Origin: a bacterium
GTDB lineage: Bacteria > Zhuqueibacterota > Zhuqueibacteria > Oleimicrobiales > Geothermoviventaceae
DNA length: 64,000 bases
Assembly (NCBI GenBank): GCA_028275345.1
Contig: JAPWUV010000009.1
Coordinates: forward strand, 109,109-173,108
Reading direction: 5' to 3'
Below are positions 1-13,638 of the stretch, one piece after another. Under the pieces are notes generated by a model. The model saw only the letters and a list, made by a program, of their open reading frames with translations, ran no database searches and was not told where the DNA came from. The position numbers and the translations under genes are program-made. Each line of letters begins with the position of its first letter. The stretch's first letter is position 1.

Positions 1-1478
1 TTCCCCTCGCACACCGTAGGTCCCACCCATGCCATGCACACCGGCGTCATTCTCGGCAAAAATACCCACGGTACCATTGCTATTGAAACCGAAAACCCCG
101 CGCGCGCTGCTACCAAGCTCTCCATAGTTCCCGGTACCATTGTGCTTGCCGTGAACAGCCGTGCCAGTCGTGGCCTCGCCGTACACGCCGTACTGAGCGC
201 CGCCCATTGCACGGAGGTTTCCGGTGGGCTGGCGGCCATACACGCCATAATCCGCGGTGCCCAAGTGGCCGAGATTCCCGTTGTAATGACTACCCCCCAC
301 TCCGTAGCCGCTCCTGCTGAACCCATACACACCGAAAGCGTTGGTTCCGTTGTTCGCCACACCGTGCACCCCAATGCCGTTGGAAGATGCCGCCTCTTCC
401 GTATACGCCCTCTGTGGAGCTTGCAAGGTAGCCGTAGTTGGCATCGCCGAGGTAGCCGAAGTTCCCGCTTGTCGCGTGCTGACCGCGCACGCCCGCACCA
501 TAGGCCTGGCCCAACACACCGTACTGCGCAGTACCGAGGCGGCCGAAGTTGCCGCTGGTCTGGTGGTAGCCATTTACAGCGATGCCGAGCGTGCCGGTGC
601 CCACGGCATTGACGGCCACTCCCTGACCGTTATCGGTGATCACGAAGGCAGGCCAGTCTGAGTTGATTGAGCCTTGGTACGGCAGCTCGAAGCCGCCGGT
701 CTCGTCCGTACCCCAGGCAAGATTGCCGCCGGAGAGCTTGAACACCTGCCCGTCGCTGCCGCCGGTAGCCGAAAGCTTCGCGGCCATCACCGCGCCGTCG
801 GCAATATCGGCGGTGCCAATCGTCCCATCCGCAAACTTCGCCGAAGTCACCGCATTGTCGGCAAGTTTTGCGGTGCCGACAGCACCCGGCGCGATCGTGG
901 GATTCGGGTACATCCCTGCGAGATCGCCACCGGCGGCACCCCCCCGGAGGGAGACTCACACCGGGAGCGAGCTTCGCTTGCGTCACGGCCCCATCCGCAA
1001 TCTTGGCCGTCGTCACCGCATTGGCCGCGAGAGTCGGATTAGGATAGGTGCCGGTCAAATCCCCGCCCGCCGTGATGCCACCAATACTCTCGGTGCTGGC
1101 AGCGCGGAAGCTGTAGCCAGAGCTCGTCAGAGGGATCCGCGGACTAAGCTCCACGCCTCCTCCAACCGTGACCCCAAGCCAGTACGGCCTGTCAAACGGC
1201 AAAGCCAATGGAACCACGCTTCCCAGCATCACATTGAAGACGCCCTTGGCAACCGCGACCACTTGGCCTTCCTCCCAAAGGGGACTGCCGCCCGTTCTCA
1301 CGTCATAGAGCCGGAAGGTGAGACTGTAGTCTCCGTCCGGTACCGCTGAGCCACTGGCGTCCGTCAACACGCCCTGGTAGCCGATGGTCCGTGGGATCTG
1401 TGCCAGGCCCGGTTTCGCTTCAAGAGGCAGCATCAGTCCCGCGGATAACCACGCCCGCGAGAAACTCGCCCCGCGCAT
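1..1478 (-). CDS. Secreted repeat surface protein (tail-fibre/collagen-like repeats); 5' part of gene, 3' end lies beyond window start; reading frame interrupted at least twice
   Basis: ATG at 1478..1476 preceded by GGAGG; signal-peptide-like N-terminus (MRGASFSRAWLSAGLMLPLEA); tandem repeats (GTYPNPTLAANAVTTAKIADGAVTQAKLA; MYPNPTIAPGAVGTAKLADNAVTSAKFADG) continue across frame changes at about 939-945 and 383-395. Confidence 0.55.
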
Positions 1479-2098
1479 GATCCTACCTCCTCTCCCGTCC
1501 TCACGGGAGGAATCCATGAAAACCACCCGCCTCCCTTCCCCATTACCCTCCCACATCGATTGCTCCAATACGGCTTGCCTCCTTCCCCCTCCCTTCGTTG
1601 ACCTGCACGTTTCACTCCCCCAAGGCCGATCCCACCGTCCACGGGGCCCACGCGCATGCGGTTCAGCTTGTGCCAACCAAGGCCCCCGCCGTCCCCGCAA
1701 CATGGCCTGCCTCGTCCGGCGTACGGGGCAGGAATTGTCCCGCCTCATGCGAAGGAGGTTACGTAATGTTCAGCCGGCATCCCTCCTCCCCCCTGTCTCT
1801 CCAACGCAAGGTCTGCCGTCCGTCCGTAGACCCTCCCGACTCCCGAAAACAGCCTTGCACACCCTTCTCCCCGGCTTCTCCTGCAAACGCCACCCGCTGC
1901 TCTCCGCGAACCAAAGCCCGCTCCCGCAGCAGCCTCTTCTTGCTATCCCGCAGGGCCAATCCGCAGCCACGCCGCGCCTCCGTCTCCTCCTCCGTCCGGC
2001 CCGAGCTCATCCCCCGGCGTCTACCCCAACTAAACCGGCGAGCACGCACGAGAAAACCCGCTCCCGCAGTAGAGCCAAGGATAAGCACGATCAACCCG

Positions 2099-2437
2099 CT
2101 ATCGCACGTACGTCAGCTTCCGCATCCGGACGAACACCCGCCCGCTCTTCTCCGACTTCGCCTCCAGCCGGTAGAGATAGACTCCACTGGCTAGACCCTC
2201 TCCCCGCACCTGCACCTTGTGATACCCCGCAGGGAAAGTCCCCTTCACCAGCGTCGCCACCTCCTCCCCAAGAGCATTGTAGAGCTTGGGGCTCACCTCA
2301 GCCCCCTCCGGAAGCGCAAACTCGATGGTCGTGCTCGGGTTGAACGGGTTGGGATAATTCTGTTCCAGCCGATACCCCCAGACGCCGCTCACCGGCCGTC
2401 GTCGATGCCAGCAACGGTTCTTCCGTGCACGGACCAA
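2099..2437 (-). pseudogene. Orphan T9SS C-terminal sorting domain (CTD) with no cargo domain upstream; likely gene remnant
   Basis: LEQNYPNPFNPSTTIEFALPEG...SGVYLYRLEA motif typical of T9SS CTDs; sequence immediately upstream on the same strand has stops in all frames (e.g. TAATTAG). Confidence 0.45.
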
Positions 2438-4540
2438 AAGTTCACGTCCCGCCTGTTCGCGCCTGTGGCACCTTCACTGGAAAGGCTGCGCTTGCAGGGT
2501 AGATGCCCCGTCGGCCTGAAATCTCCGCGCAGTTCGCGTTCTCGCGCGTACGATTGTGCGGGAAAGCTAATTACTGGACACTATCGTAGCCGTGGTGCTG
2601 GATGCGGGGACCTCTGTGGGTACAATGGCGGGCTTGGGCGAAGAACTGGAGCTGAAGAGGATGTGGGCAGAACCGACACGCACACCCGCATGGCGAGCAG
2701 GAACTCTCGGCTCTCCTTGGAGCCTGTGCACGCTCCGTTTCATCCTTCGACCTCTCGTTTGGACACTCGAAACTCCATCGTATCGGCTCCATTGAAACTG
2801 ACCCGAGCGAGGGACATCCCCGACGCTAGCGTCAGAAGAACCCCTCCCTCATGTATCCGGGGGTCCAAACCGCTTACCGCGAGGCGATTACCTCCTCCCC
2901 CGCGCCATAGGAGCCGCCGTTTCCCCCACCGAATTTCCACAACCCCCGCCAACGACCGATTCGTGGGAACAGGGCGCGCCAGAATCTCGAACCCCGGGTC
3001 CTTTCGCTCCGGTCAAGGGTCGCCAACTCTAGCAAGAATGTCAAGAAGAGTTTTCAGAACCGTCGCCCTCGTCGTCTCTTTCTTCTTGCAGCCGGGAGGA
3101 CAAGGTTCGATGCGAGAAGCGTCGCCCGCGGCGCTTCCGGGGACTTGCCCTATTAGCCAGGAGCTTCGTTGCGACGAGCGGCGTGGCATCCTCGGCTTTG
3201 CTTCTTTGGAGGAGCGGGGGCGTGGGAGCCTCACCGCAAATGCAGCAAGCCACGCGTGTCCGCTTTGGTGTCCGAAGCCCTCTCTCGGAGCGTACCTAGT
3301 CCTGCCCGCCGCCGAACCGCAGCGTCGACCCCGCCGGCGAAAGTCTCGCTCGCTGCTTGCCAGACCATCCGCCGTACCTCAGCTCGCTTTGGGACCAATG
3401 GTCAGCGAAGCGTTCAAGACGGCGCATTGGGCAGGGGGGTCGACCTAATCCCACATCCCCCGACGTCGAGCCAGAGGGGGCTCACCTCGGGCACCGCTGC
3501 TTCCCTCGGGGACAGCATCCACCGCTCGGTCCGAAGGCAGCCCCAATGCGTCCGGGCGTGCCACCGGTACAGCCCGCGGGGAGAACCGTTACGAACTGCG
3601 GCCTTCCGCCGCCCCGATCCGACCCAACGGCCAGGAGCAGTGGCGAATCGAGCGTGGAAAAAGGCCCGGCGCGCCTACCGCCCCTCGGCTGTCCGGAAGG
3701 ACGGTGCCGTTTTCTACCCTATGTCAAGCAGAACAGCCTCTTGAAGCCCGAGACGCTGGCCGTCGCCAGGGCCATTTATCCTCAGCAGGGTCTGCCTCTC
3801 GCAAGTGGGGAGACCAACGAAATGCCGATCCCTCGTGCGCAATGCCCATCCAATCCCGCGAATTCCCGACCCGTGGAGGCCGGCTCTTCAGCGCGCGGAA
3901 ACGCGCCTCGCGCTTTCTTGCTGGGGAAGTCGACCCCGCCAGTGGCCGTCACAGAGAGGACCTTATCGGGGGTCCCCACGCGGCCAAGACCCTCGCGGTT
4001 CTCGCAATTATGCCCTTAGTATTCGAGTACAAGAGCAGTCTAACCAGTGACTGAGTATCGTACGGGTCCGCACCAATATCGGTGAGTATTATCGCCCGGC
4101 GCTTTTGACTTACCTGCCCATGAGCGGCTTGGGACAGGAGCTCATAGAGAAAAGTACCGTACCGATTACCAGCCGGCTATGCATCGCAGCCTCCGTCCAT
4201 CTTTTGCGCCACGGCTCACCCAGATTACCCATCTACTTCTCTTTCGCAAATATTAACCACATCGGGAACACAACATAGGTCAAGTGACTGATTTCCCCCA
4301 ATAGGACAATCGCACTTCCGACTTAATCGCTAAATCGCACTTTCTTGTGATTCCGACCATGACCCCGCCTATCCGTCCACTTAGGAACAGCTCTCACCGT
4401 GCCCGGTACGCAGATCACCCACCGTCCCCGAGAGTTTCGGCTCAGCCAAGACTCCCCATTGCCTTGAAGCGCAACACTCCCCCGCGGGATCACAACCCTA
4501 CTGAGGGGGATACTTACCCTCTTCCCGTCTTTCGGGCTCC

Positions 4541-6960
4541 TCACCGCAATAGCAGCAGCTTCAGGCTCTCCGCTCCCGAGATACTCACGAACCGGCACAG
4601 GTAGACCCCCGAGGGCAAGATTCGTCCGCTCCGGTCTCTACCATCCCACCGCAGGAAATATTCTCCTGCCTCGTACACTCCGTCAACGAGAGTCACGACC
4701 TCGGCCCCCGTAATCGCGAAGACTCTCGCCACCACCCGGCCCCGGCGCGAAAGGGAGAAGTGGATGGTCGTGACGGAATTGAAGGGATTGGGACTGCTCC
4801 GGAGAGCAAACCCGCGGACAGGAGCCGCAGGACCGGCGGGGAAGCTTGGTTCGTAGGACACACCGGTGATGACAGCCTTTGCAACCCAGTCCAGTCGCCC
4901 GTATCCGTTGTTGGAGTAGTCGACGGACCAGTTGCCTTGCTCGTCCATCGTGCTCAGATCGACCATGCCGTCGCCGTCGTAGTCCGCGGGAATGGGCACG
5001 CAATCCTTGCCCCCGTAGATGGGCTCGGAGACCCAGTCGATGCCGACCAATCCCCAGCCCATGACGGCGTCCGTCATCCAGCGGCCCTCCTCCGTCTTCA
5101 CGCCGATCGCTGCCGCTCGGTCTGACCCGTACCGCCCTGGGGCCGGAATAGCCCCCATTCCCCCGTAATTGAGATTCGAAGGAGAAACCCAGTCCCACTG
5201 ATCCGCCGCTTGGAAGCCGTCGCGCGCCCAATCGATGAGCCAGCGCCCGTCATCAACTTTGATGGCCACATCCGCCTTCCCGTCGCCGTCGTAGTCGGCC
5301 GGGGCGGGATAGATGTTCCCCTCCGGGTAGTAGGCCTGAAGCCCGTGGGCGTGGAGATTCCACCCCGAAAAAGCGTCAGCGGAAAAGTCGAAGGACCAGC
5401 CGCCGTAGTACCCGAAAATGGCCACATCCGCCTTCCCATCGCCATCGTAGTCAGCGGGGACGGCCTGGACTTGGTAGAACCAGGCGCTGCCCCCGTACGG
5501 GAGTTTGAGGTCCCAGCTGCCGAAGCCGTTGTGCGCGTAATCGATGCACCATTCCCCCGTGAGATCGTCTTTGATGGCGATGTCCGCCTTCCCGTCCCCG
5601 TCGTAGTCGGCGGGAGCGGGCTGCGAGGATTTGTCCACGGCCGGCAAGCTGTGGCTACTCACCTGGAGATCCCAGCTCCCGAAGCCGTTCCTTGCGAAGT
5701 CGAGGAGCCAGCGCCCGTCGTTGACCTTCATCGCCAGATCGGCTTTGCCATCGCCATCGTAGTCCGCGGGACAGGGAAGGCGAAACTCCCCACAGGCGGA
5801 GCACCCGCGAGGGCGTGATGCATGATCCACGACTGGTAGCCCAGCACCGATGGCCCGGAGGAGGTCGGGGAAGCGCGCACGCTATCGCCATCGGCGGTGA
5901 GCCAGTAGCCGTCGCCGACCGCGGCAGTGATCGTCACGCGGTCCCGATTGGAGAAGTAATAGGGATTGAAATCCCAATACTCGTTCTGCCACTCGGGCCG
6001 GGGTGTGAGGACGACGCGCCGCTTGTCGTCCTTCAGCGCCAGGTACTTGCCGGACCAGTGCACAATCTTCGCCATCGACGGAGTCACGAATTCCAATCGC
6101 CACAGGAAGTCCGTGTTCCCGGGCTGGAGGGGCAGGAGCACGACCTTCGCCTCGCAGCGACGAGGGTAGGAATGGGCACAGAGGTACAGGTTATTGCCCG
6201 GGCTCAGCGAGAAATCCCTTTCGTTGCTGATGTAGAACCACGCCTGATCGTAGCCCTCGATGGTCTGCTTGCGCATCTCTTCGTTGGCCGTCCAGACCAG
6301 GAGGTAGATCCTTTCGTACTCGGTCTGGTCGATCAAACCCTCGTGGTAGCACTTGAGGAATTTGCCCACGTAGCTTCCATCCCCATAGACCGAGTTCCAG
6401 TAGATGGGCACGTTCGGAAGCTCAGCCCAGACGAAACGGCCCAGGAGGATGGTGTTCGTGGCGATGGCATCTCGCAGTTGCGGCAGGATATCCTGCGGCC
6501 GGATGCCGTGGCGCTGCATCATCGTGGCCAGCAAGGGGATGAGCGTGTTGTAGGATTGGGCGCAGTAATACGCGATGCGCGGGCTCTTGTTTTCGATGAG
6601 GATCTCGAACTGGTTGGCGGCATTGATGGCGTCGCGGATCCAGGCTTCGGTCGTCTGCTGCGAGGGCGGGTTGTTGAGATAGATTCGGTACTGCTCAATG
6701 AGCGCCTCCACGTCGGCTATTTGCTCTTCGGCGCGAACGATGTTGATCTCATCGAGGATCTCCTGTTTTGCCTGCTCAATGAGGTCGGCCAGATTGGGAT
6801 CCGGCTCCAGGAAGTTCTTGATGCGGTTGTAGGTATCCCACGCGGTCTTGATGAAGCTCAGGAAGTCGAACTCGCGGGACGGACTGGCATAGGAGACGGT
6901 TCCGAGGCCGGCAAGCCCCCAGAAGAGGACCCCAAGAAGGATGACTCGCTGCGATCTCAT
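4541..6960 (-). CDS. T9SS-sorted FG-GAP/VCBS-repeat protein with signal peptide and uncharacterised N-terminal domain; one apparent 1-bp frameshift near 5764-5770 joins ORFs 5728..6960 and 4541..5830
   Basis: ATG 6960 with GAGGAGG RBS; signal peptide MRSQRVILLGVLFWGLAGLGTVSYA; five PADYDGDGKAD repeats; C-terminal CTD (SPNPFNSVTTIHFSL...SGVYLCRF); the C-terminal ORF has no signal peptide of its own. Confidence 0.6.
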
Positions 6961-7091
6961 TGCTTCCTCCTCAGTTTGGCTGACGCACAGCCGGACAGGT
7001 TCGGGATGAAGCCCGCCGAGGGCGCGACGCCGGCCGATTCGGACCGCAGCGAGGACAGTGGCGCACAGAGGAAAGGCTCATTCCGTGGGGA

Positions 7092-8351
7092 TCAGCCGTA
7101 GCGGAGCCAGCGCAACACCTCCGGAAGTGTGGGCCGTTTCCCGAACATCAGGATCCCCACTCGGAAGATCCGTCCGACGGCCCAGATGCAGACCCACAGC
7201 GTCCCAAGAAGCAGAATCACCGATGCCGCAATCTGCACGAACGGGGGCGGATCCACCGCCACCCGGACAAACATCAGGATTGGAGCGAAGAACGGGATGA
7301 GGGACAGGATGACGCTCAAGCTGGAGTGCGGCGAGTTGAGGACGTAGAACATGGCCATAAACGGCACTACCAAGAGCATGATCACGGGGTACTGAAGCTG
7401 TTGAGCCTCGGTCTCGTTGTTCACCATCGCGCCGAGGGCTGCCCACATCGTCGAGTACAGGAGGTATCCGAGCACGAAAAAGACCACAAACGCCACAATG
7501 GTGCCAACGGGGATGGTGTTCCAGGCGAAATCCGGGCCCAGTTTCGCCTGCAACCAGTTCCCGCCGAACACGAAAAACCCCACCAAGATCACAGCCCAGA
7601 TCAGGTACTGCAAAAGCCCAACGGAACCGACGCCGAGGATCTTCGAGGCCATCAGCTGACCGGGACGCACAAGCGACAAAACGATCTCCACGGCGCGGGA
7701 GCTCTTCTCTTCGATCACAGCGCGGAGGACGAAAGTCCCATAGAAAACGAGGGTCATGTAGAGCGAAAGGACCAGGAGATAGATCACGAGGAATTCCGAG
7801 CCGCTGCTTCGCTCTTCCGCACCCTCCTTCTGCACCTTGAAGGTGCGCATGGGCAGCGTTCGGGTCAAGGCGAGAACGGTCCGCGGGTCGAAGCCTTGAT
7901 CCAGAAGACGCAATTCCGTCACGGCCGCTGACACCCGAGCTCTCACCCTTTCGTTGCGTTCGAAGCTCGACACATTCCTCGCGTAGAGCTCGATGGGCAC
8001 GGGGTCGGCAATGGCCCGGGCCGGCACCACCACAACCGCTTCCAGCTCGTTTTCGAGCACCTTTTGCAAAAGCGCTTTCTTGAGATCGGGCAGTCCGGCC
8101 GAATCGCAAGGGAAGAGACGAAACCGATCTTGCCTTTCGGATGCCCCCAGCCCACTCGCTTGCGAAAGCCTCCCTGTGAGATCGATCACGGCGATGCGGC
8201 TTTCCTTCTGGGCGCCGAGATGCATGAAGAGCGCCGGAAGCAGGCTCAAGCCCACGACCAATACCGGGAAGGCCAGCGTACCGATCCAGAATCCCTTCCC
8301 CCGCGTCCGCTGGAGGAATTCCTTGCGCATCAGGATCAGCACATTCTTCAC
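7092..8351 (-). CDS. ABC-2 family transporter permease
   Basis: Polytopic hydrophobic protein; 4-nt overlap with upstream ABC ATPase gene. Confidence 0.75.
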   Translation of the reverse strand: MKNVLILMRKEFLQRTRGKGFWIGTLAFPVLVVGLSLLPALFMHLGAQKESRIAVIDLTGRLSQASGLGASERQDRFRLFPCDSAGLPDLKKALLQKVLENELEAVVVVPARAIADPVPIELYARNVSSFERNERVRARVSAAVTELRLLDQGFDPRTVLALTRTLPMRTFKVQKEGAEERSSGSEFLVIYLLVLSLYMTLVFYGTFVLRAVIEEKSSRAVEIVLSLVRPGQLMASKILGVGSVGLLQYLIWAVILVGFFVFGGNWLQAKLGPDFAWNTIPVGTIVAFVVFFVLGYLLYSTMWAALGAMVNNETEAQQLQYPVIMLLVVPFMAMFYVLNSPHSSLSVILSLIPFFAPILMFVRVAVDPPPFVQIAASVILLLGTLWVCIWAVGRIFRVGILMFGKRPTLPEVLRWLRYG

Positions 8352-9262
8352 GGCGCCACCTCCGGACTGGCACCCTTCACGACGGCGATGAAAATCTCAT
8401 TCAGGCTGGGCTGGCGGATCTCAAACCGCCGGACCTCCACCTCCCGCACGGCGCGCTCAAGGATGGCCTGGGGAGTTACCCCCTTGCGCGGGCGGATTTC
8501 CACGTAATGCCCATAGTCGTCGTATCCCGCAACCAAGGACGGATCCTGCAGGAAGTGGGGCTCACCGCGGTAGGCCAGTACAACTCTCTCCTCGCCAAAT
8601 CGACGTTTCACCTCCGTTAGTTCCCCCACGAGTACGGCTCGACCCTGGTTGATCAGGCAGATCTCGTCGCACAGCTTTTCCACCTGTTCCATCAGGTGAG
8701 TGGAGAGGATGACCGTCGAGCCCTTCTTCACCAGCTCCAGGATCGCATCCTTCACCTCCCCGGCGCTGATGGGATCCAATCCCGTGAAGGGCTCGTCCAG
8801 GATCGCGATCTCCGGTTCGTGGAGAACTGCCCCGATGATCATCACCTTCTGCTGCATGCCCTTGGAGAGCTGCTCCACAGGCTTCTTCTCCCACTCCGCA
8901 AGCTCGAACCGCTCCAGCCAAAGGCGGATCTTCCGCCGCGCATCCCGCCGCTCCATCCCCCGAAGCACGGCCAGCAGCTCCAGGACCTCCCCTACCGGGA
9001 GCTTCGGGTACAAGCCTCTTTCTTCGGGTAGGTAGCCCACACGCTGGAGCACCCCGTCTCGGTTCGGCTTCCCCAGCACCAGGATCTCGCCCGTGTCCGG
9101 CCCGATGATGTTCATCACCATGCGGATGGTCGTGGTCTTGCCAGCGCCGTTCGGGCCGAGCAGCCCGAACACCCGCCCTCTTTCCACGGTGAGGGTCAGG
9201 TCGGACACTGCGCAAACCTCACCAAAGGACTTGCTCACGTGCCGCAATGAGAGAACTTCCAC
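8348..9262 (-). CDS. ABC transporter ATP-binding protein
   Basis: Walker A GPNGAGKTT, ABC signature LSKGMQQK, Walker B ILDEP; GTG start with GGAGG RBS. Confidence 0.85.
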   Translation of the reverse strand: MEVLSLRHVSKSFGEVCAVSDLTLTVERGRVFGLLGPNGAGKTTTIRMVMNIIGPDTGEILVLGKPNRDGVLQRVGYLPEERGLYPKLPVGEVLELLAVLRGMERRDARRKIRLWLERFELAEWEKKPVEQLSKGMQQKVMIIGAVLHEPEIAILDEPFTGLDPISAGEVKDAILELVKKGSTVILSTHLMEQVEKLCDEICLINQGRAVLVGELTEVKRRFGEERVVLAYRGEPHFLQDPSLVAGYDDYGHYVEIRPRKGVTPQAILERAVREVEVRRFEIRQPSLNEIFIAVVKGASPEVAP

Positions 9263-9552
9263 CCGTCGCCTCCTTCCTTACTCGAAAGCGAAACCCACCG
9301 CCCTGACGAACAGCAAGGCAAGTTAGTCAATCCACCGAGGGAAATCAAGCTTGCCCGACCGCGCAAACGGGCCCACCCCATCACGTAACCCCGGGCTCCA
9401 GCTCCCACGGAGTTCACAGCGCTACGCAATTGCCGGCATTGCGGGAAGTGTTGCAATGAATCAATCAGCGGGCTAAATTTCAACGGAACCCTACCCGCAG
9501 GAAATGCGGGAAGAGCCACAGTCCCGTTCCCTGATACGGGAGGGGCGCGGTC

Positions 9553-10749
9553 GTGTTTCCAGCTGAGGGAGGCGATTTGAGAAGAACAGGCTCGTCCTTC
9601 CGCAAAGTCCACGCGAGCGTCAGGTTCGGCAGCTTGCCTGGAAAGCCGCGATGGGGCAGACCGTCGGTGCTTCGCCGGCTGTCTTGGATGGTCGTGCTCG
9701 TGACGGGCCTCGGAGGCCTGGCACCTTGGGCCGCCGAGAGGCCACTCCAATCGATCCGGTTCGTCCAGTTGGGAGACGGGGCGATCGAGATCCGCGTCGA
9801 GAAGGCGCTTTTCACTGTGTGGCGTCCCGGAGGAATCGTGAATCAGGTACGCCTCACTCGGCCGATCCTCTGGCCCGTGATCTCATCCGGCGGCTCGCCT
9901 GTCACTCGGTGTTGGCCTCTGGGGACCTGCGGCCGGGATGAACCCAAAGATCACGCACACCACCAGGGCATCTGGCTCGCCTACGGACGGCTCGTCCTCG
10001 GGGAAAGGGATACCCTCGACACCTGGGCCGTGTATCGGCCGCTGCCAGGAGGGCCCGAAAGTCCCACCCGGTATCGCCCGGGCGAACGCGGGATTGTGAC
10101 CTGCGAGCAAACGACGGCCGACGAGAAACGCGCCGAGATCCGCGCTCGCTGCCGTTGGCAGACCGAAAGGGACGGGCGCCAGTTCCTGATCGAAGAGCGG
10201 CGCATGCGTTTCGCCGCCGGCAAGGACTGGCGCGGGATCGACTTCGTGATCCGTCTCCGGGCCCTTGATCTTCCCGTCGAATTCCTCGACTCCAAGGAGG
10301 GATTCTTCGGGCTGCGGGTGGGTCCCGACCTGGCGGAGGCCTCCGCAGATTCCCCGTCGGCGCAAAAACCAGCCGGCTATTTCGGCCCGGGGGGAGCTTC
10401 TGGCGAGGCACAGATCTGGGGCAGACGATTTCCTTGGGTGGCCCTTCGCGGAACCTTGGCTAGCGGCGAGCCGATGACGATCATCTTCATGGACCATCCG
10501 GACAACGTGAACCACCCATCCCCGTGGATGACCCGCGCCTACGGACTATTCGCGGTGAATCCCTTCGGGACCGGCGAATTCGCCGAGGGGAAGGACCGTT
10601 TCCACTTTCGACTTCCGGCGGGAGGGACAGTCACGTTGAAATACCGCATCCTCCTGTGCTCCCGTCACCTGGCGGCGGAGGAGGTGGAAAGCCTCTACCA
10701 ACGGTACTGTGAGGGTACATCCGGCCACGCCGAGATCGGATCCTGGTGA
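9553..10749 (+). CDS. Secreted hypothetical protein (possibly DUF6807/PmoA-like family)
   Basis: Long ORF with hydrophobic signal-like segment MVVLVTGLGGLAPWAA and HHQGIW motif; start uncertain (GTG 9553, TTG 9577 or ATG 9688). Confidence 0.5.
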   Translation: MFPAEGGDLRRTGSSFRKVHASVRFGSLPGKPRWGRPSVLRRLSWMVVLVTGLGGLAPWAAERPLQSIRFVQLGDGAIEIRVEKALFTVWRPGGIVNQVRLTRPILWPVISSGGSPVTRCWPLGTCGRDEPKDHAHHQGIWLAYGRLVLGERDTLDTWAVYRPLPGGPESPTRYRPGERGIVTCEQTTADEKRAEIRARCRWQTERDGRQFLIEERRMRFAAGKDWRGIDFVIRLRALDLPVEFLDSKEGFFGLRVGPDLAEASADSPSAQKPAGYFGPGGASGEAQIWGRRFPWVALRGTLASGEPMTIIFMDHPDNVNHPSPWMTRAYGLFAVNPFGTGEFAEGKDRFHFRLPAGGTVTLKYRILLCSRHLAAEEVESLYQRYCEGTSGHAEIGSW

Positions 10750-10827
10750 GGATCGGGCTCCCAGCCTCGAACCGGGAGACCCGGCGCAGGAGATCAAGCC
10801 AAACCATCACCCTCAGAAGAGGACACC

Positions 10828-11142
10828 ATGGCCTTTACGGGCAAAGAGGAACACTCCATCACCCTCGGGGAGGCGAGCAAACTCACCGCTAACTATCGGC
10901 GCCGAGCGGGCAAAGGGGCGGTGACCGGAGGCTACTTCAGCCGGGAGGCGATCGAACGAATCTTGAAGCAGGAGGGATGCGTCGGCCTCCGTTACTATTT
11001 CGCCGAGACCGACGATGGCCGTCCCACGCTGATCCTGGTGGGGGTTGACGCCCAAGGGGAGGATCTGATCGGCGGGTTTCTGGTGGATCTCGCTTTGCCC
11101 TGCCCACCCCACTGCAGCAGCAGAAACCCGCTGAACTCGTAG
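10828..11142 (+). CDS. Hypothetical small protein
   Basis: ATG with AGAAGAGGA RBS-like sequence; balanced amino-acid composition unlike the Arg/Pro-rich wrong-frame ORFs. Confidence 0.45.
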   Translation: MAFTGKEEHSITLGEASKLTANYRRRAGKGAVTGGYFSREAIERILKQEGCVGLRYYFAETDDGRPTLILVGVDAQGEDLIGGFLVDLALPCPPHCSSRNPLNS

Positions 11143-11150
11143 GCTGTGCC

Positions 11151-11789
11151 ATGTTTAACATCGCAGCCATGGTTGCGATCGCCAGCGATGTGGTGCCCGT
11201 TGCCGCAGCGTACGCGGCGCGAAAGCGGCTCCCACAGGATCTGCTCATCCTTGCCGTGCTGCTTTGTCTCTATTTGGGCATGGATCTAGTTGCGGCAACC
11301 ATGGCTCTCAACGGCATCCGCAATCTTTGGCTCGGCAATTTGGAAGCTTGCGCGGATTTCCCCGTGCTGGTGTGGATCTTCCACCGGTGGGAACCCCAGC
11401 CAAGGAACAAGGCAATCCTTCGCGGACTGATCGTAGCGAGCATCCCCTTGTGGGCTCTAACCCAGTGGCAGGTGGGAGGCATTCAGCGCTACAACTTCGC
11501 CGGGAGATCCATCCAGAGCATCGTCCTGAGCGCCCTCGCGATCGCCTTCCTGCACCGGTTCGCCGTGTACGGGGACGAAAGGCCTTGGACCAACCCGCGT
11601 TTCCTGGTGGCGCTCGCCGTGCTGCTTCAGTTCGCAGGGTCGATTTTCGCCTTCTCCTTCGGGTTCTTGATGGAAACCAAGCAGATGGTGGCCATTTGGC
11701 GCCTTCGTAACGTGATGAGCACGCTGTCCAATCTTGTCTTTGCGGGAGGATTCTGGTGCCTTCGCCAGAGTGGGGCTACTGGTGGGTAG
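11151..11789 (+). CDS. Polytopic membrane protein (about 6 TM helices), possible sensor partner of the downstream kinase
   Basis: Six hydrophobic segments; overlaps the start of the histidine kinase gene. Confidence 0.5.
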   Translation: MFNIAAMVAIASDVVPVAAAYAARKRLPQDLLILAVLLCLYLGMDLVAATMALNGIRNLWLGNLEACADFPVLVWIFHRWEPQPRNKAILRGLIVASIPLWALTQWQVGGIQRYNFAGRSIQSIVLSALAIAFLHRFAVYGDERPWTNPRFLVALAVLLQFAGSIFAFSFGFLMETKQMVAIWRLRNVMSTLSNLVFAGGFWCLRQSGATGG

Positions 11790-13399
11790 CTCTCGCCGGG
11801 ACTGCCATCGTCGGCACCCTCACGGCGGGCCTCCTTGCGACGCTTCTTGCAGCCAATCGACGGCTACGCCAGGAACGGGACTTCGGCGAGACCATCCTCC
11901 GCGAGGCTCCCGCAGCGATCATCGTCCTCGATGCTTGGGGGCAAATCCTCCGGGTGAATGATCAGCTGAGCCGACTGCTCGGGTGCGATCCCCGGGCGCT
12001 GCGGGGCCGGTCCTTCCGCACCATCCCTCGCCTGAATGAGCTCCTGGCCAACTCTTGGGGAGAAGGTCCGTACAGCGGTCCGAGGAATTGCGAGTTCGAG
12101 CGCCAGATCCCGGACAGCGAAGGGAACCCTCACCATCTCAGCTGGACCCTCACGGCCCTCTCCGGCCCGAAGGGCTTGCCCCGATGGCTTGTGGCCATCG
12201 GCATCGATCTGACGGAGACCAAACGGCTGGAACGCTACCTATTCGAGGCACAAAAGCTGGAGGCCGTGGGGAGGTTGGCGGGCGGGATCGCTCACGATTT
12301 CAATAATCTGCTCACGGCGATCCTCGGCCAATGCTACGCGTTGGAAAGGCATCTACCAGACCCCGATCATCCCGCGCGGGCCGCGATCCAGGAGATCGAC
12401 CGTGCCGCTGAGAAGGCCTCTCGGCTCACGAAGCAACTTCTGGCTTTCAGCCGCCAGCAAGTGCTGGAGCCTAGGCCGGTGCTCCTCAACGGGATCGTCT
12501 CCGAGATGGAAGAAATGATCCGACGCCTCGCTGGGGAGTCCGTGGATGTGAGCTTGGAGCTGCATCCCGAGGCGGGGTTGATCGAGGCGGATCCGACGCA
12601 GATCGAGCGGGTCCTGATCAACCTTGTCCTCAATGCCCGTGATGCCATGCCACAGGGCGGTAGGCTACGTCTGGTCACCCTCCGTTGCAGCGCCGATGAA
12701 GCCGCCTGTCGGCGTGTTCCAGGGCTCCGTCCGGGCAAGTATGCCGTCCTCGTGGTGGAGGACACCGGAATCGGCATGGACGAGGCGACGCTCTCTCGGA
12801 TTTTCGAGCCCTTCTTCACCACGAAGCCGGCGGGCAAAGGGACGGGCCTGGGGCTTTCCACCGTATACGGGATCGTGCAGCAGCTTGGGGGGGTCATCTC
12901 GGTGACGAGTCAACCCGGCGAGGGAACCCGCTTCGAGATCTATTTCCCCCAGCTGGACACCGCGACCCCGGTTCCCGTCCCGAGCGGCGAAGAAGACGTA
13001 CCTCGGCCGCTGCGGGGCCTGGTGCTAGTCGCGGAAGACGACCCCGACGTTCGGAACTCCGCCGCCGAGGCCCTTCGGGACGCGGGTTTTACCGTGGAAG
13101 TGGCTGCCGACGGCCCGGAGGCGCTGCGGAAGAGCGCCCTACTCGGCCACAAGATCGATCTCCTCATCACCGACGTGGTCATGCCGCGCATGAGCGGCCG
13201 AGAGCTGGCAGAACGGCTCCGAACCTTCAACCCAAAGCTCAAAGTCCTGTACATCTCAGGCTATGCCGAGGAAGTGATCCGTCAACACGGCGTGTTGGGA
13301 AAGAGCTCTCAGCTCCTCTCAAAGCCCTTTACCCCGAGGCAATTGGTGCGCACCGTGGCCAGGGTGATTCGGGAACCCGTCCCGACAGGATCGCAATAG
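11756..13399 (+). CDS. Hybrid sensor histidine kinase (TM, PAS, HisKA, HATPase_c, C-terminal receiver)
   Basis: GTG start after GGGAGGA; H-box HDFNNLLTAILG; G-box GTGLGLS; receiver LVLVAEDDPDVR...LITDVVMPRMSG. Confidence 0.85.
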   Translation: MPSPEWGYWWVALAGTAIVGTLTAGLLATLLAANRRLRQERDFGETILREAPAAIIVLDAWGQILRVNDQLSRLLGCDPRALRGRSFRTIPRLNELLANSWGEGPYSGPRNCEFERQIPDSEGNPHHLSWTLTALSGPKGLPRWLVAIGIDLTETKRLERYLFEAQKLEAVGRLAGGIAHDFNNLLTAILGQCYALERHLPDPDHPARAAIQEIDRAAEKASRLTKQLLAFSRQQVLEPRPVLLNGIVSEMEEMIRRLAGESVDVSLELHPEAGLIEADPTQIERVLINLVLNARDAMPQGGRLRLVTLRCSADEAACRRVPGLRPGKYAVLVVEDTGIGMDEATLSRIFEPFFTTKPAGKGTGLGLSTVYGIVQQLGGVISVTSQPGEGTRFEIYFPQLDTATPVPVPSGEEDVPRPLRGLVLVAEDDPDVRNSAAEALRDAGFTVEVAADGPEALRKSALLGHKIDLLITDVVMPRMSGRELAERLRTFNPKLKVLYISGYAEEVIRQHGVLGKSSQLLSKPFTPRQLVRTVARVIREPVPTGSQ

Positions 13400-13638
13400 T
13401 TCCATTCAGCCGGCCCACTTCAAACCAGACGGCACTTCTTTCCCGAGCCACGGCTCCTCGGGCTCTGCAGAGGGCGGCACCCGCCGGTCCTGTTGTTGGC
13501 GATTGTCGCACGAGAGGCTACTTGCTCTTGTCGGGTTCCTCTGCGCTCTCCTTGGGGACAGAGTTGGGGGGCTGAACAACTCTGGCGGGGTCAGTTTTGG
13601 TGGTCTAGTACTGACAAGGGCTGGAGGTGGACGAGGCC

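Follow-up and report, generated by a model that had tools for sequence, protein, structure and literature searches.

Within the window, the 64 kb of DNA analyzed here from an uncultivated bacterium of the FCB group, a relative of Candidatus Zhuqueibacterota/KSB1, positions 2440-4540 form a 2.1 kb stretch without a recognizable gene. On one side lies an open reading frame (ORF) that matches the sorting domain Por_Secre_tail (2099-2437, minus strand), and on the other an FG-GAP gene that ends at 4541 on the same strand, just as a preliminary description of this DNA had stated. That description saw no credible protein-coding frame between the two, and our analysis bears this out. When codon usage is scored by log-likelihood, with 22 long genes of the window as the training set, all six frames stay below zero from ~2281 to 4740; at 2460 bp, no other such run of the 64 kb is as long (the runner-up has 780 bp). 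Three-base periodicity is 0.3-2.1 over 2340-4330 compared with a window median of 5.7. We also found no local codon-phase contrast in GC within the stretch, even with 45-nt windows. The description was right that the ORFs here are short or rich in Arg, Ser and Pro, with the nuance that one of the latter, at 2219-3448 on the plus strand, reaches 409 aa and consists of these three residues to 35.5%, compared with ~18% in real proteins of this DNA. The stretch is present, at 99.0-99.2% identity, in five independent assemblies of this species, which rules out an assembly artefact. Direct, inverted and tandem repeats amount to chance-level pairs, among them a 16-nt inverted pair at 2695/4428 that is expected by chance by our own estimate; a promoter and terminator scan gave nothing above background, and a blastn search against plasmids and phages gave no match. 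A replication origin was also considered and rejected, as there are just two DnaA-box-like 9-mers with one mismatch each, no skew switch and no dnaA context.

Along the minus strand, the stop codon of the FG-GAP gene (4541) is followed by an intergenic spacer of 356 bp (4185-4540), which has a GC content of 0.548 (0.637 for the whole window) and shows no coding score, no Rfam match and no promoter or terminator signal above chance. It ends at the ATG (4184-4182) of a pseudogene, rather than a member gene, of the DUF1593/Sde182_NH-like family (PF07632), whose 5' third (~165 codons) can be traced by profile homology from 4184 to ~3700. The ATG opens a signal peptide (MHSRLVIGTVLF, 4184-4146) with a frameshift near 4150, and the conserved block of the family, FLYELLSQAAHGQVSQKRRAIILTDIGADPYDTQSLVRLLLYSN.., is found at 4152-3994. 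Weaker collinear pieces lie at 3976-3887, 3881-3849 and 3849-3766. On the raw frame, PF07632 scores 26.4 bits over profile positions 1-37 of 268 (E 6e-6), compared with a gathering threshold of 26.8. Full-length DUF1593 members align by tblastn at 65% identity over 46 aa (E 2e-14), a custom HMM built from 63 proteins of the family gives 55.8 bits, and a codon-DNA HMM run through nhmmer gives E 3e-26 for 4155-3997 and no DUF1593 signal beyond 3997. The scores of the custom and DNA HMMs make the N-terminal homology certain, for a fragment only. Frameshift-tolerant profile alignment yields z ~19 for HMM positions 1-66, z ~3 for positions 67-105 (~1 with a wider window and composition-corrected scores), and z ~3 under each of three nulls for positions 106-165. 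The first 46 codons of the domain keep 65-69% identity, and the remainder is nearly erased.

Members of this family (PF07632 + PF21027), for which there is a solved structure of a “cellulose-binding protein” (PDB 2YHG), are ~475-aa proteins with a signal peptide and a nucleoside-hydrolase-like fold. The wreck resembles them in its signal peptide and in the near-invariant N-terminal block (R.I.LTDI...P.D..S.VRLLLYSN). It differs in its frameshifts, of which there are at least four (including those near 4150, 3990, 3883 and 3849), in the deletion of three codons after YSN, and in reading DPYD where all eight homologs compared have DPDD. Moreover, a complete ~475-aa domain in one ORF with a C-terminal Sde0182_C is absent: positions 1 to ~165 are traceable, and the other two thirds of the domain as well as Sde0182_C are undetectable. 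The full-length relatives that we retrieved are all 470-506 aa long (63 of 63) and none carries a sorting domain; the closest sequences come from FCB-group MAGs, including those of candidate division KSB1. Short DUF1593 “proteins” in the databases (P0004-P0011) were rejected as conserved truncated forms, being contig-end or frameshifted long-read fragments.

The second relic is a small gene for a T9SS-sorted protein, which runs from ~2720 to 2099 on the minus strand. The “orphan” Por_Secre_tail ORF is the still-open 3' part of this gene; it matches PF18962 with 31.2 bits, above the gathering threshold of 27, has a strong codon-phase signal (z 4-6), and shares 73-77% identity with the C-terminal halves of P0019-P0024. 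The closest homologs overall (P0019-P0030) are made up of a signal peptide, an N-domain of ~75 aa and the C-terminal sorting domain (CTD), with 67-77% identity over the C-terminal 91 residues. Homology extends upstream from the CTD to 2506 in frameshift-tolerant alignment, and the same approach recovers the decayed 5' half at 2440-2720, which contains at least three frameshifts. Here a signal-peptide remnant, KESREFLLAMRVCVS, lies at 2718-2674 and has lost its start codon; HILFSSSSSPKPAIVPTEVPASSTTATIVSSN at 2665-2570 is followed by an in-frame stop (2569-2567), ASTLQAQPF is found at 2506-2480, and EGATGANRRDVNFWSVHGRTVAGIDDGR at 2475-2392 ends in a stop. The signal peptide and the beginning of the N-domain (~2714-2570) reach z values of up to 6.1, with none of 60 shuffles attaining the observed score. 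Sec export and subsequent T9SS sorting need an in-frame N-terminal signal peptide and passenger, and the remnants of both at 2720-2440 are out of frame with the sorting domain, interrupted by stops and devoid of a start codon. As judged from its homologs, the sorting-domain “orphan” is the tail of a broken small-protein gene of ~185 aa.

Comparable small proteins (~176-192 aa), which NCBI names “T9SS type A sorting domain-containing protein” (P0027), are known from hot-spring and sediment metagenomes. Their CTD genes adjoin DUF5907-repeat proteins, and a DUF5907-repeat gene is likewise adjacent in the window, although the gene order relative to it differs from that in two of the related loci (L094 and L098). 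The copy here shares the C-terminus and the traceable N-domain and signal peptide with these proteins, but not their intact 5' half. The preliminary description had proposed that the stretch could be the degraded body of a cargo gene that once preceded the orphan domain. That the DNA is degraded coding sequence is correct, and frameshift-corrected frames with clear homology cover roughly half of the stretch. The cargo itself does not fit: with homologs of 176-192 aa, the sorting domain never lost a large cargo, and the wreck from 4184 to ~3700 is a separate DUF1593/Sde182-like gene without a sorting domain.

Comparison with the loci of two sister strains showed a SNP density of 1.00% in the stretch (1.09% over 2440-3993), and in eight neighbouring gene segments third codon positions reach 1.05%, positions 1 and 2 together 0.44%. 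The polymorphism of the stretch among strains is neutral-looking on this basis, which comprises 21 SNPs from one species. Three 1-nt indels fall inside the stretch, the intact genes at 7078-13448 have none over 6.4 kb, and two more frame-shifting variants are found in other strains. Between 2720 and 3700, indels at 3485, 3663, ~2983 and ~3436 are polymorphic among strains, and the spacer differs from the sister strains by three SNPs and one 1-nt indel (4479). In the sorting-domain ORF, all four SNPs relative to the sister strains are non-synonymous.

The two homologies with their lesions and the neutral-looking polymorphism, together with the lack of any RNA-family, structure or conservation signal (see below), lead us to favor, with a probability of about 75%, the view that the stretch is the neutrally drifting debris of two adjacent inactivated minus-strand genes for secreted proteins and has no function of its own. 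In the order of the minus strand, the FG-GAP gene and the intergenic spacer would be followed by a DUF1593/Sde182-like gene, whose first ~165 codons can be followed through the frameshifts, then by ~1 kb in which the remainder of this gene has most likely decayed past detection, and lastly by what would have been the ~185-aa T9SS-sorted gene, with a 5' half full of frameshifts and stops and a 3' sorting domain that is open. We infer that the stretch has no functional transcription. Most likely, this is an ordinary case of bacterial gene decay and not an RNA gene. Ordinary bacterial pseudogenes show frameshifts, stops, lost start codons, lost periodicity, indels that are polymorphic among strains, and broken neighbours, and the stretch shows the same; nothing essential sets it apart from them, except that the decay is unusually advanced for a free-living bacterium and uneven. 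This unevenness, which is seen along both wrecks, counts against our explanation, as does a central part (2720-3700) without demonstrable homology.

Two other readings would give the stretch, or much of it, a product of its own. The 409-aa plus-strand ORF contains a public 347-aa “hypothetical protein” (2405-3448), and taking it as a real orphan gene, as public annotations do, has in its favor the length of the open frame, its prediction by gene callers in every assembly, and a cluster of four sequence variants across several public sources. This is almost certainly wrong, as besides the excess of Arg, Ser and Pro the ORF shows no three-base periodicity, has a flat GC content by codon position (0.63/0.61/0.62 vs ~0.65/0.43/0.80 in real genes here), and starts in antisense overlap with the sorting-domain ORF. 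Strain variants (P0014 and P0016) shift its frame, and indels give lengths of 250, 347 and 446 aa. It has no relatives in 185,579 species genomes of GTDB and, among 1.84 billion representative proteins, none beyond its own species apart from P0017, which we rejected as an artefact (a tandem-repeat ORF on a gene-poor contig, with an E-value inflated by four repeated weak stretches). The 347-aa protein of the NCBI, JGI/IMG, ENA and Logan gene calls is therefore best seen as a spurious frame over pseudogene debris. The other reading, a large non-coding RNA, had been raised in the preliminary description, and it would suit a long and GC-rich piece of DNA that has no frame and shares the strand of its neighbours; an absent homolog is also still compatible with a species-specific RNA. 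We nevertheless consider it very unlikely that the stretch or its core is a large lineage-specific RNA or another functional non-coding element. A search with 4227 Rfam models, including those for rRNA, tmRNA, RNase P, group I/II introns, GOLLD, ROOL, OLE and HEARO, found nothing at gathering thresholds anywhere in the window and nothing over 2000-4800 even at E<=10, and ARAGORN found no tRNA or tmRNA genes, in agreement with the earlier remark that convincing hallmarks of rRNA, tmRNA, RNase P and tRNA are lacking. Folding energies of 200-nt windows over 2401-4600 on both strands have MFE z-scores from -1.8 to +2.7, centred on ~0. Beyond the 99%-identical strains, no relatives of the stretch were found in the GTDB species genomes, the JGI metagenomes or the representative proteins; the only locus from the JGI scan, L012, is L010 again, taken from a chunked record. 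In addition, conservation is limited to one species, SNPs are as dense as at third codon positions, the stretch contains polymorphic single-base indels, and about half of it is demonstrably ex-coding. The likeness to GOLLD, ROOL, OLE, HEARO and group II introns is confined to being a long frame-free stretch in a gene-dense genome; in contrast to them, the stretch has neither a covariance-model match nor excess folding energy, and its polymorphism, restriction to one species and half ex-coding content set it further apart.

What remains to be weighed is the origin of the central core (2720-3700; ~980 bp, GC 64.5%), in which we found no frame, repeats or homolog. Six-frame searches of Pfam and NCBIfam gave no match, no paralog of the core exists in the window or the left flank, and its dinucleotide signature resembles that of the host. 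A lightly indel-scrambled native gene was rejected, given the lack of local codon-phase contrast even at 45 nt; on an ex-coding origin as such this test is uninformative, because the proven relics lack contrast too. Our best guess, from its length and from weak collinear traces, is that the core represents the remaining 3' two thirds of the DUF1593 pseudogene in a more advanced state of decay. Given the uniform length of the 63 relatives, the part missing here amounts to 312 codons or 936 bp, which the ~980-bp core matches almost exactly, leaving ~45 bp as a spacer. The two best sub-threshold HMM matches in the core share the minus strand, follow a roughly collinear order and include “YGGWSGK”, ~30 nt from the expected place of WGGWGGRY; under standard scoring collinear profile chunks beat column-permuted profiles overall (Stouffer z 3.7). 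With composition correction, DUF1593 profile positions 166-477 are not significant against the core (Stouffer z 0.7-1.0); the whole-length z ranges from -0.2 to 3.0 across two runs (1.2-3.0 in one), and single-sequence alignments have z ~0. Two further candidates were discarded. A plus-strand outlier (z 3.9) appeared with L005 only, at one gap setting, and was not replicated with L006 or the profile, and an alignment of the DUF1593 C-terminus to 2892-2662 lost its significance after composition correction and runs at its end into the signal peptide of the small CTD gene, which is better supported. It is possible, if rather doubtful, that the relics at both ends are real and that the core is unrelated non-functional DNA, such as the wreck of an orphan gene or mobile element, after a deletion, rearrangement or insertion had removed the 3' two thirds of the DUF1593 gene. 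Orphans are common at the locus, no significant DUF1593 signal was obtained beyond ~3700 by tblastn, hmmsearch --max, nhmmer or frameshift-tolerant profile alignment, preservation falls sharply after 3994, and GC rises from 51.8% in the best-preserved DUF1593 block to 64.5% in the core. The low GC of that block is, however, due to its Ile/Leu/Asp/Tyr/Asn-rich sequence, no terminal repeats, transposase traces or paralogous copies were found, and the length, strand and collinearity of the core, along with the GGW motif and the permutation result, all speak for a DUF1593 origin. Far less probable is that a species-specific functional RNA or regulatory element has replaced the DUF1593 body and that the sorting-domain ORF is actively kept open, either through gene conversion with paralogous sorting domains as donors or because selection acts on a stand-alone product. 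Such maintenance would explain why decay has touched the sorting domain so much less than the 5' half of the same gene.

Under the favored reading of two decayed secreted-protein genes, the finding matters little beyond annotation hygiene, in that it explains a spurious hypothetical protein and an “orphan” T9SS sorting domain. The inactivating indels are polymorphic among co-occurring strains and could add a small piece of evidence on how such populations lose genes. The locus as a whole forms a small cluster of decaying genes for secreted proteins, comprising the DUF1593 gene, the small CTD gene, a DUF5907-repeat gene and, in one strain, the FG-GAP gene. The ortholog of an 881-aa DUF5907-repeat protein is broken across at least four frames at this locus, and the 806-aa FG-GAP gene is split in this strain only, by a 1-nt deletion at 5773. 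Many genes of the locus are orphans with almost no homologs; one 410-aa protein, for example, has three matches in 5.8 billion proteins. With a Ca. Oleimicrobiaceae MAG, the nearest relative that bears a name, synteny is confined to the FG-GAP gene, at 73% nucleotide identity, and excludes the stretch.

The stretch at 2440-4540 appears to be ordinary pseudogene debris of known families, left by two genes; neither relic had been annotated as a pseudogene before. It lies on an ENA metagenome contig (ERZ27247212 k141_157206, 100 kb) for which a Candidatus Oleimicrobiaceae MAG is the nearest named relative, as judged from a single neighbouring protein (66% identity). The MAG's family falls in the FCB-group phylum Candidatus Zhuqueibacterota, formerly counted within KSB1. 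The phylum was described using hot-spring metagenomes (PMC11683472). As the preliminary description stated, the stretch lies between two minus-strand features, a Por_Secre_tail sorting-domain ORF (2099-2437) and an FG-GAP gene whose end is at 4541, and its lack of a reading frame is real. In this genome of ~63% GC, the real genes of the window have GC1/GC2/GC3 of ~0.65/0.43/0.80, and when 22 long genes of the window are used to train a codon log-likelihood score, all six frames score below zero over ~2281-4740; nowhere else in the 64 kb does such a run extend as far. Three-base periodicity across the stretch is 0.3-2.1, compared with a window median of 5.7. Four sister-strain loci (L008-L011, from ENA, Logan, and two JGI samples, one on a contig of 2.02 Mb) contain the region in full, at a nucleotide identity of 99.0-99.2%, which, together with four sequence variants in the 90% cluster of the ORF discussed next, rules out an assembly artefact.

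The single long ORF in the stretch (2219-3448, plus strand, 409 aa), which public gene sets list as a hypothetical protein of 347 aa, is spurious: its GC is flat across codon positions, and Arg, Ser, and Pro together make up 35.5% of it. Against 1.84 billion representative proteins, it matched its own species cluster and one tandem-repeat artefact, and nothing else. The latter (P0017, 362 aa, L013 10001-11089) aligned only via repeated weak stretches and was rejected as unrelated; it is a translated tandem repeat of ~79 codons on a gene-poor contig of 417 kb.

At the high-coordinate end, the remains of a DUF1593 gene run on the minus strand from 4184 to ~3700. The sole match of a six-frame Pfam scan was PF07632 (Sde182_NH-like/DUF1593; E = 6e-6) at RRAIILTDIGADPYDTQSLVRLLLYSNTKGIIAR, minus strand ~4098-3997, covering profile positions 1-37, and tblastn with full-length DUF1593 members as queries aligned 46 aa at 65% identity (E = 2e-14). 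Just upstream of this conserved block, in another frame, a signal-peptide beginning, MHSRLVIGTVLF.., starts from the ATG at 4184, and the two are joined through a frameshift that lies in a T-run around 4150. The relic reads DPYD where all eight compared homologs have DPDD, and three codons are deleted after YSN. GTDB genomes supplied 80 DUF1593 loci (three in candidate division KSB1), and we built a family HMM from 63 full-length proteins, all of which are 470-506 aa long and none of which carries a sorting domain. The N-terminal fragment of the relic scored 55.8 bits against this HMM, and a codon-DNA HMM of the family (nhmmer) recovered 4155-3997 with an E-value of 3e-26. Homology was extended using a custom-written frameshift-tolerant profile alignment, which placed profile positions 106-165 at 3897-3708, where a 'KSGL...G..G.G.G...EGS' run lies in register; z was ~3 with each of three nulls, based on DNA shuffles, column-permuted profiles, and composition-corrected scores. 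Positions 67-105 were placed at 3986-3878 with z ~3 (2 of 300 shuffles reached the observed score), and z was only ~1 in a wider-window, composition-corrected run. The family has a solved structure, the 'cellulose-binding protein' PDB 2YHG. On a 208-kb ENA contig (L005 10001-11388), a DUF1593 gene appears in the gene calls as a row of four short ORFs, and the neighbouring esterase and GH127 genes are split likewise, which is typical of long-read frameshift errors; because of frameshifted assemblies of this type, the first homolog search gave only short 'proteins'.

The core of the stretch (2720-3700) is ~980 bp long, compared with the 936 bp needed for the missing 312 DUF1593 codons. Its best two sub-threshold HMM matches share the minus strand and a roughly collinear order, and its dinucleotide signature is host-like. 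These three features favour the core being the decayed remainder of the DUF1593 gene in situ, to which we assign a probability of about 60%. One of the two matches, 'YGGWSGK', lies ~30 nt off the expected site of the highly conserved WGGWGGRY, and the sister strains show this pattern too. It may instead be that unrelated DNA replaced the remainder, as there is no significant DUF1593 signal for profile positions 166-477 in the core: whole-length affine alignment gave z of 1.2-3.0 with standard and -0.2 to 3.0 with composition-corrected scores, collinear chunks gave a non-significant Stouffer z of 0.7-1.0 after correction, single-sequence alignments (local and semi-global) gave z ~0, and nhmmer with DUF1593 found nothing. 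However, we consider replacement less likely given the length of the gap and the strand and order of the best matches. Six-frame searches of the core with Pfam and NCBIfam gave no match, and no paralog of it was found within the window or its left flank.

The other gene occupies the end with the lower coordinates. The sorting domain at 2099-2437 has its closest homologs in a tight group of proteins of 176-192 aa (P0019-P0030, 67-77% identity), which consist of a signal peptide, a ~75-aa N-domain, and the sorting domain, and are not large cargo proteins. With frameshift-tolerant alignment this homology can be followed past the ORF start as far upstream as 2506, and the signal peptide and N-domain start can be traced at ~2714-2570 (z up to 6.1; 0 of 60 shuffles reached the observed score), so that the gene spans ~2720-2099. 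The earlier idea of a degraded gene holds for the decay itself, but the single large cargo body gives way to two genes, one of them small. In the 5' half, the start codon is lost and there are at least three frameshifts as well as in-frame stops. The 3' part (2099-2437) is preserved far better than the 5' half (2440-2720): it is an open frame whose codon-phase signal is strong (z 4-6) and which shares 73-77% identity with homologs. All four strain SNPs in it are non-synonymous, and present-day purifying selection is therefore not evident. Hypothetically, decay could have been uneven, or the segment could be of more recent origin or have undergone gene conversion from paralogous sorting domains.

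The other proposal, a large non-coding RNA, found no support, and none of the available tests marks the stretch as an RNA gene. The suggested Infernal/Rfam scan matched no family, either in the whole window at gathering thresholds or in 2000-4800 at E ≤ 10, and no tRNA or tmRNA genes were found. Folding energies of 200-nt windows on both strands of 2401-4600 are centred on zero (z -1.8 to +2.7), and the stretch has no repeats of note. Its relatives are absent from plasmids, phages, and 185,579 species (one genome each), and those in JGI metagenomes come only from the same species. Compared with two sister-strain loci (L008 and L010), the stretch has 21 SNPs (1.00%; 1.09% in 2440-3993); the corresponding values for eight gene segments nearby are 1.05% (third codon positions) and 0.44% (positions 1 and 2). 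Three single-base indels (3485, 3663, and 4479) fall in the stretch and none in 6.4 kb of intact genes (7078-13448); two other strains have extra frame-changing variants near 2983 and 3436. These counts, small in number, are consistent with unconstrained DNA; in a conserved structured RNA one would expect SNPs and indels to be rarer.

The surroundings are also decaying. Beyond a 356-bp spacer of lower GC (4185-4540), a 1-nt deletion at 5773 relative to the sister strains splits the FG-GAP gene (within 4541-6960, minus strand) into overlapping ORFs of 410 and 429 aa. The gene is one intact 806-aa ORF in L008, L009, and L010 and is fused in a JGI relative (P0002, 625 aa), and the split is probably a real strain variant, since it occurs on two contigs. 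On the other side, the gene running leftwards from 1493 (window 1-1493 plus L010 6886-7600, minus strand) is an ortholog of an 881-aa DUF5907-repeat protein, with up to 63% identity to that at L098 947-3592 in a related organism. Its sequence is scattered across four or more reading frames, gene calls break it into several short hypothetical proteins, and indels of 5 nt at 441-445 and 1 nt at 938 vary among strains; it is probably another pseudogene. Other parts of the window contain intact sorting-domain cargo genes, which suggests that the organism probably still uses T9SS secretion itself. In relatives (L094 and L098), the DUF5907-repeat protein likewise adjoins small sorting-domain proteins. 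A recurring module in related organisms from the same environments (L098 391-5701, L094 5062-10555, L099, and L100) begins with a large protein of the DUF5907-repeat or FlgD_ig type, after which comes a ~180-aa protein that is almost only T9SS sorting domain with a short N-domain, and it is at times tandem-duplicated (881, 176, 231, and 183 aa). The sorting-domain ORF is separated from the DUF5907 gene by a second frame-free stretch of ~600 bp (1494-2098), where an 83/111-aa ORF called at 1759-2094 (minus strand) belongs to no family and no periodicity was detected. It is strongly C-rich on the plus strand (GC skew ~-0.33), and SNP density over 1290-2098 is 1.24%.
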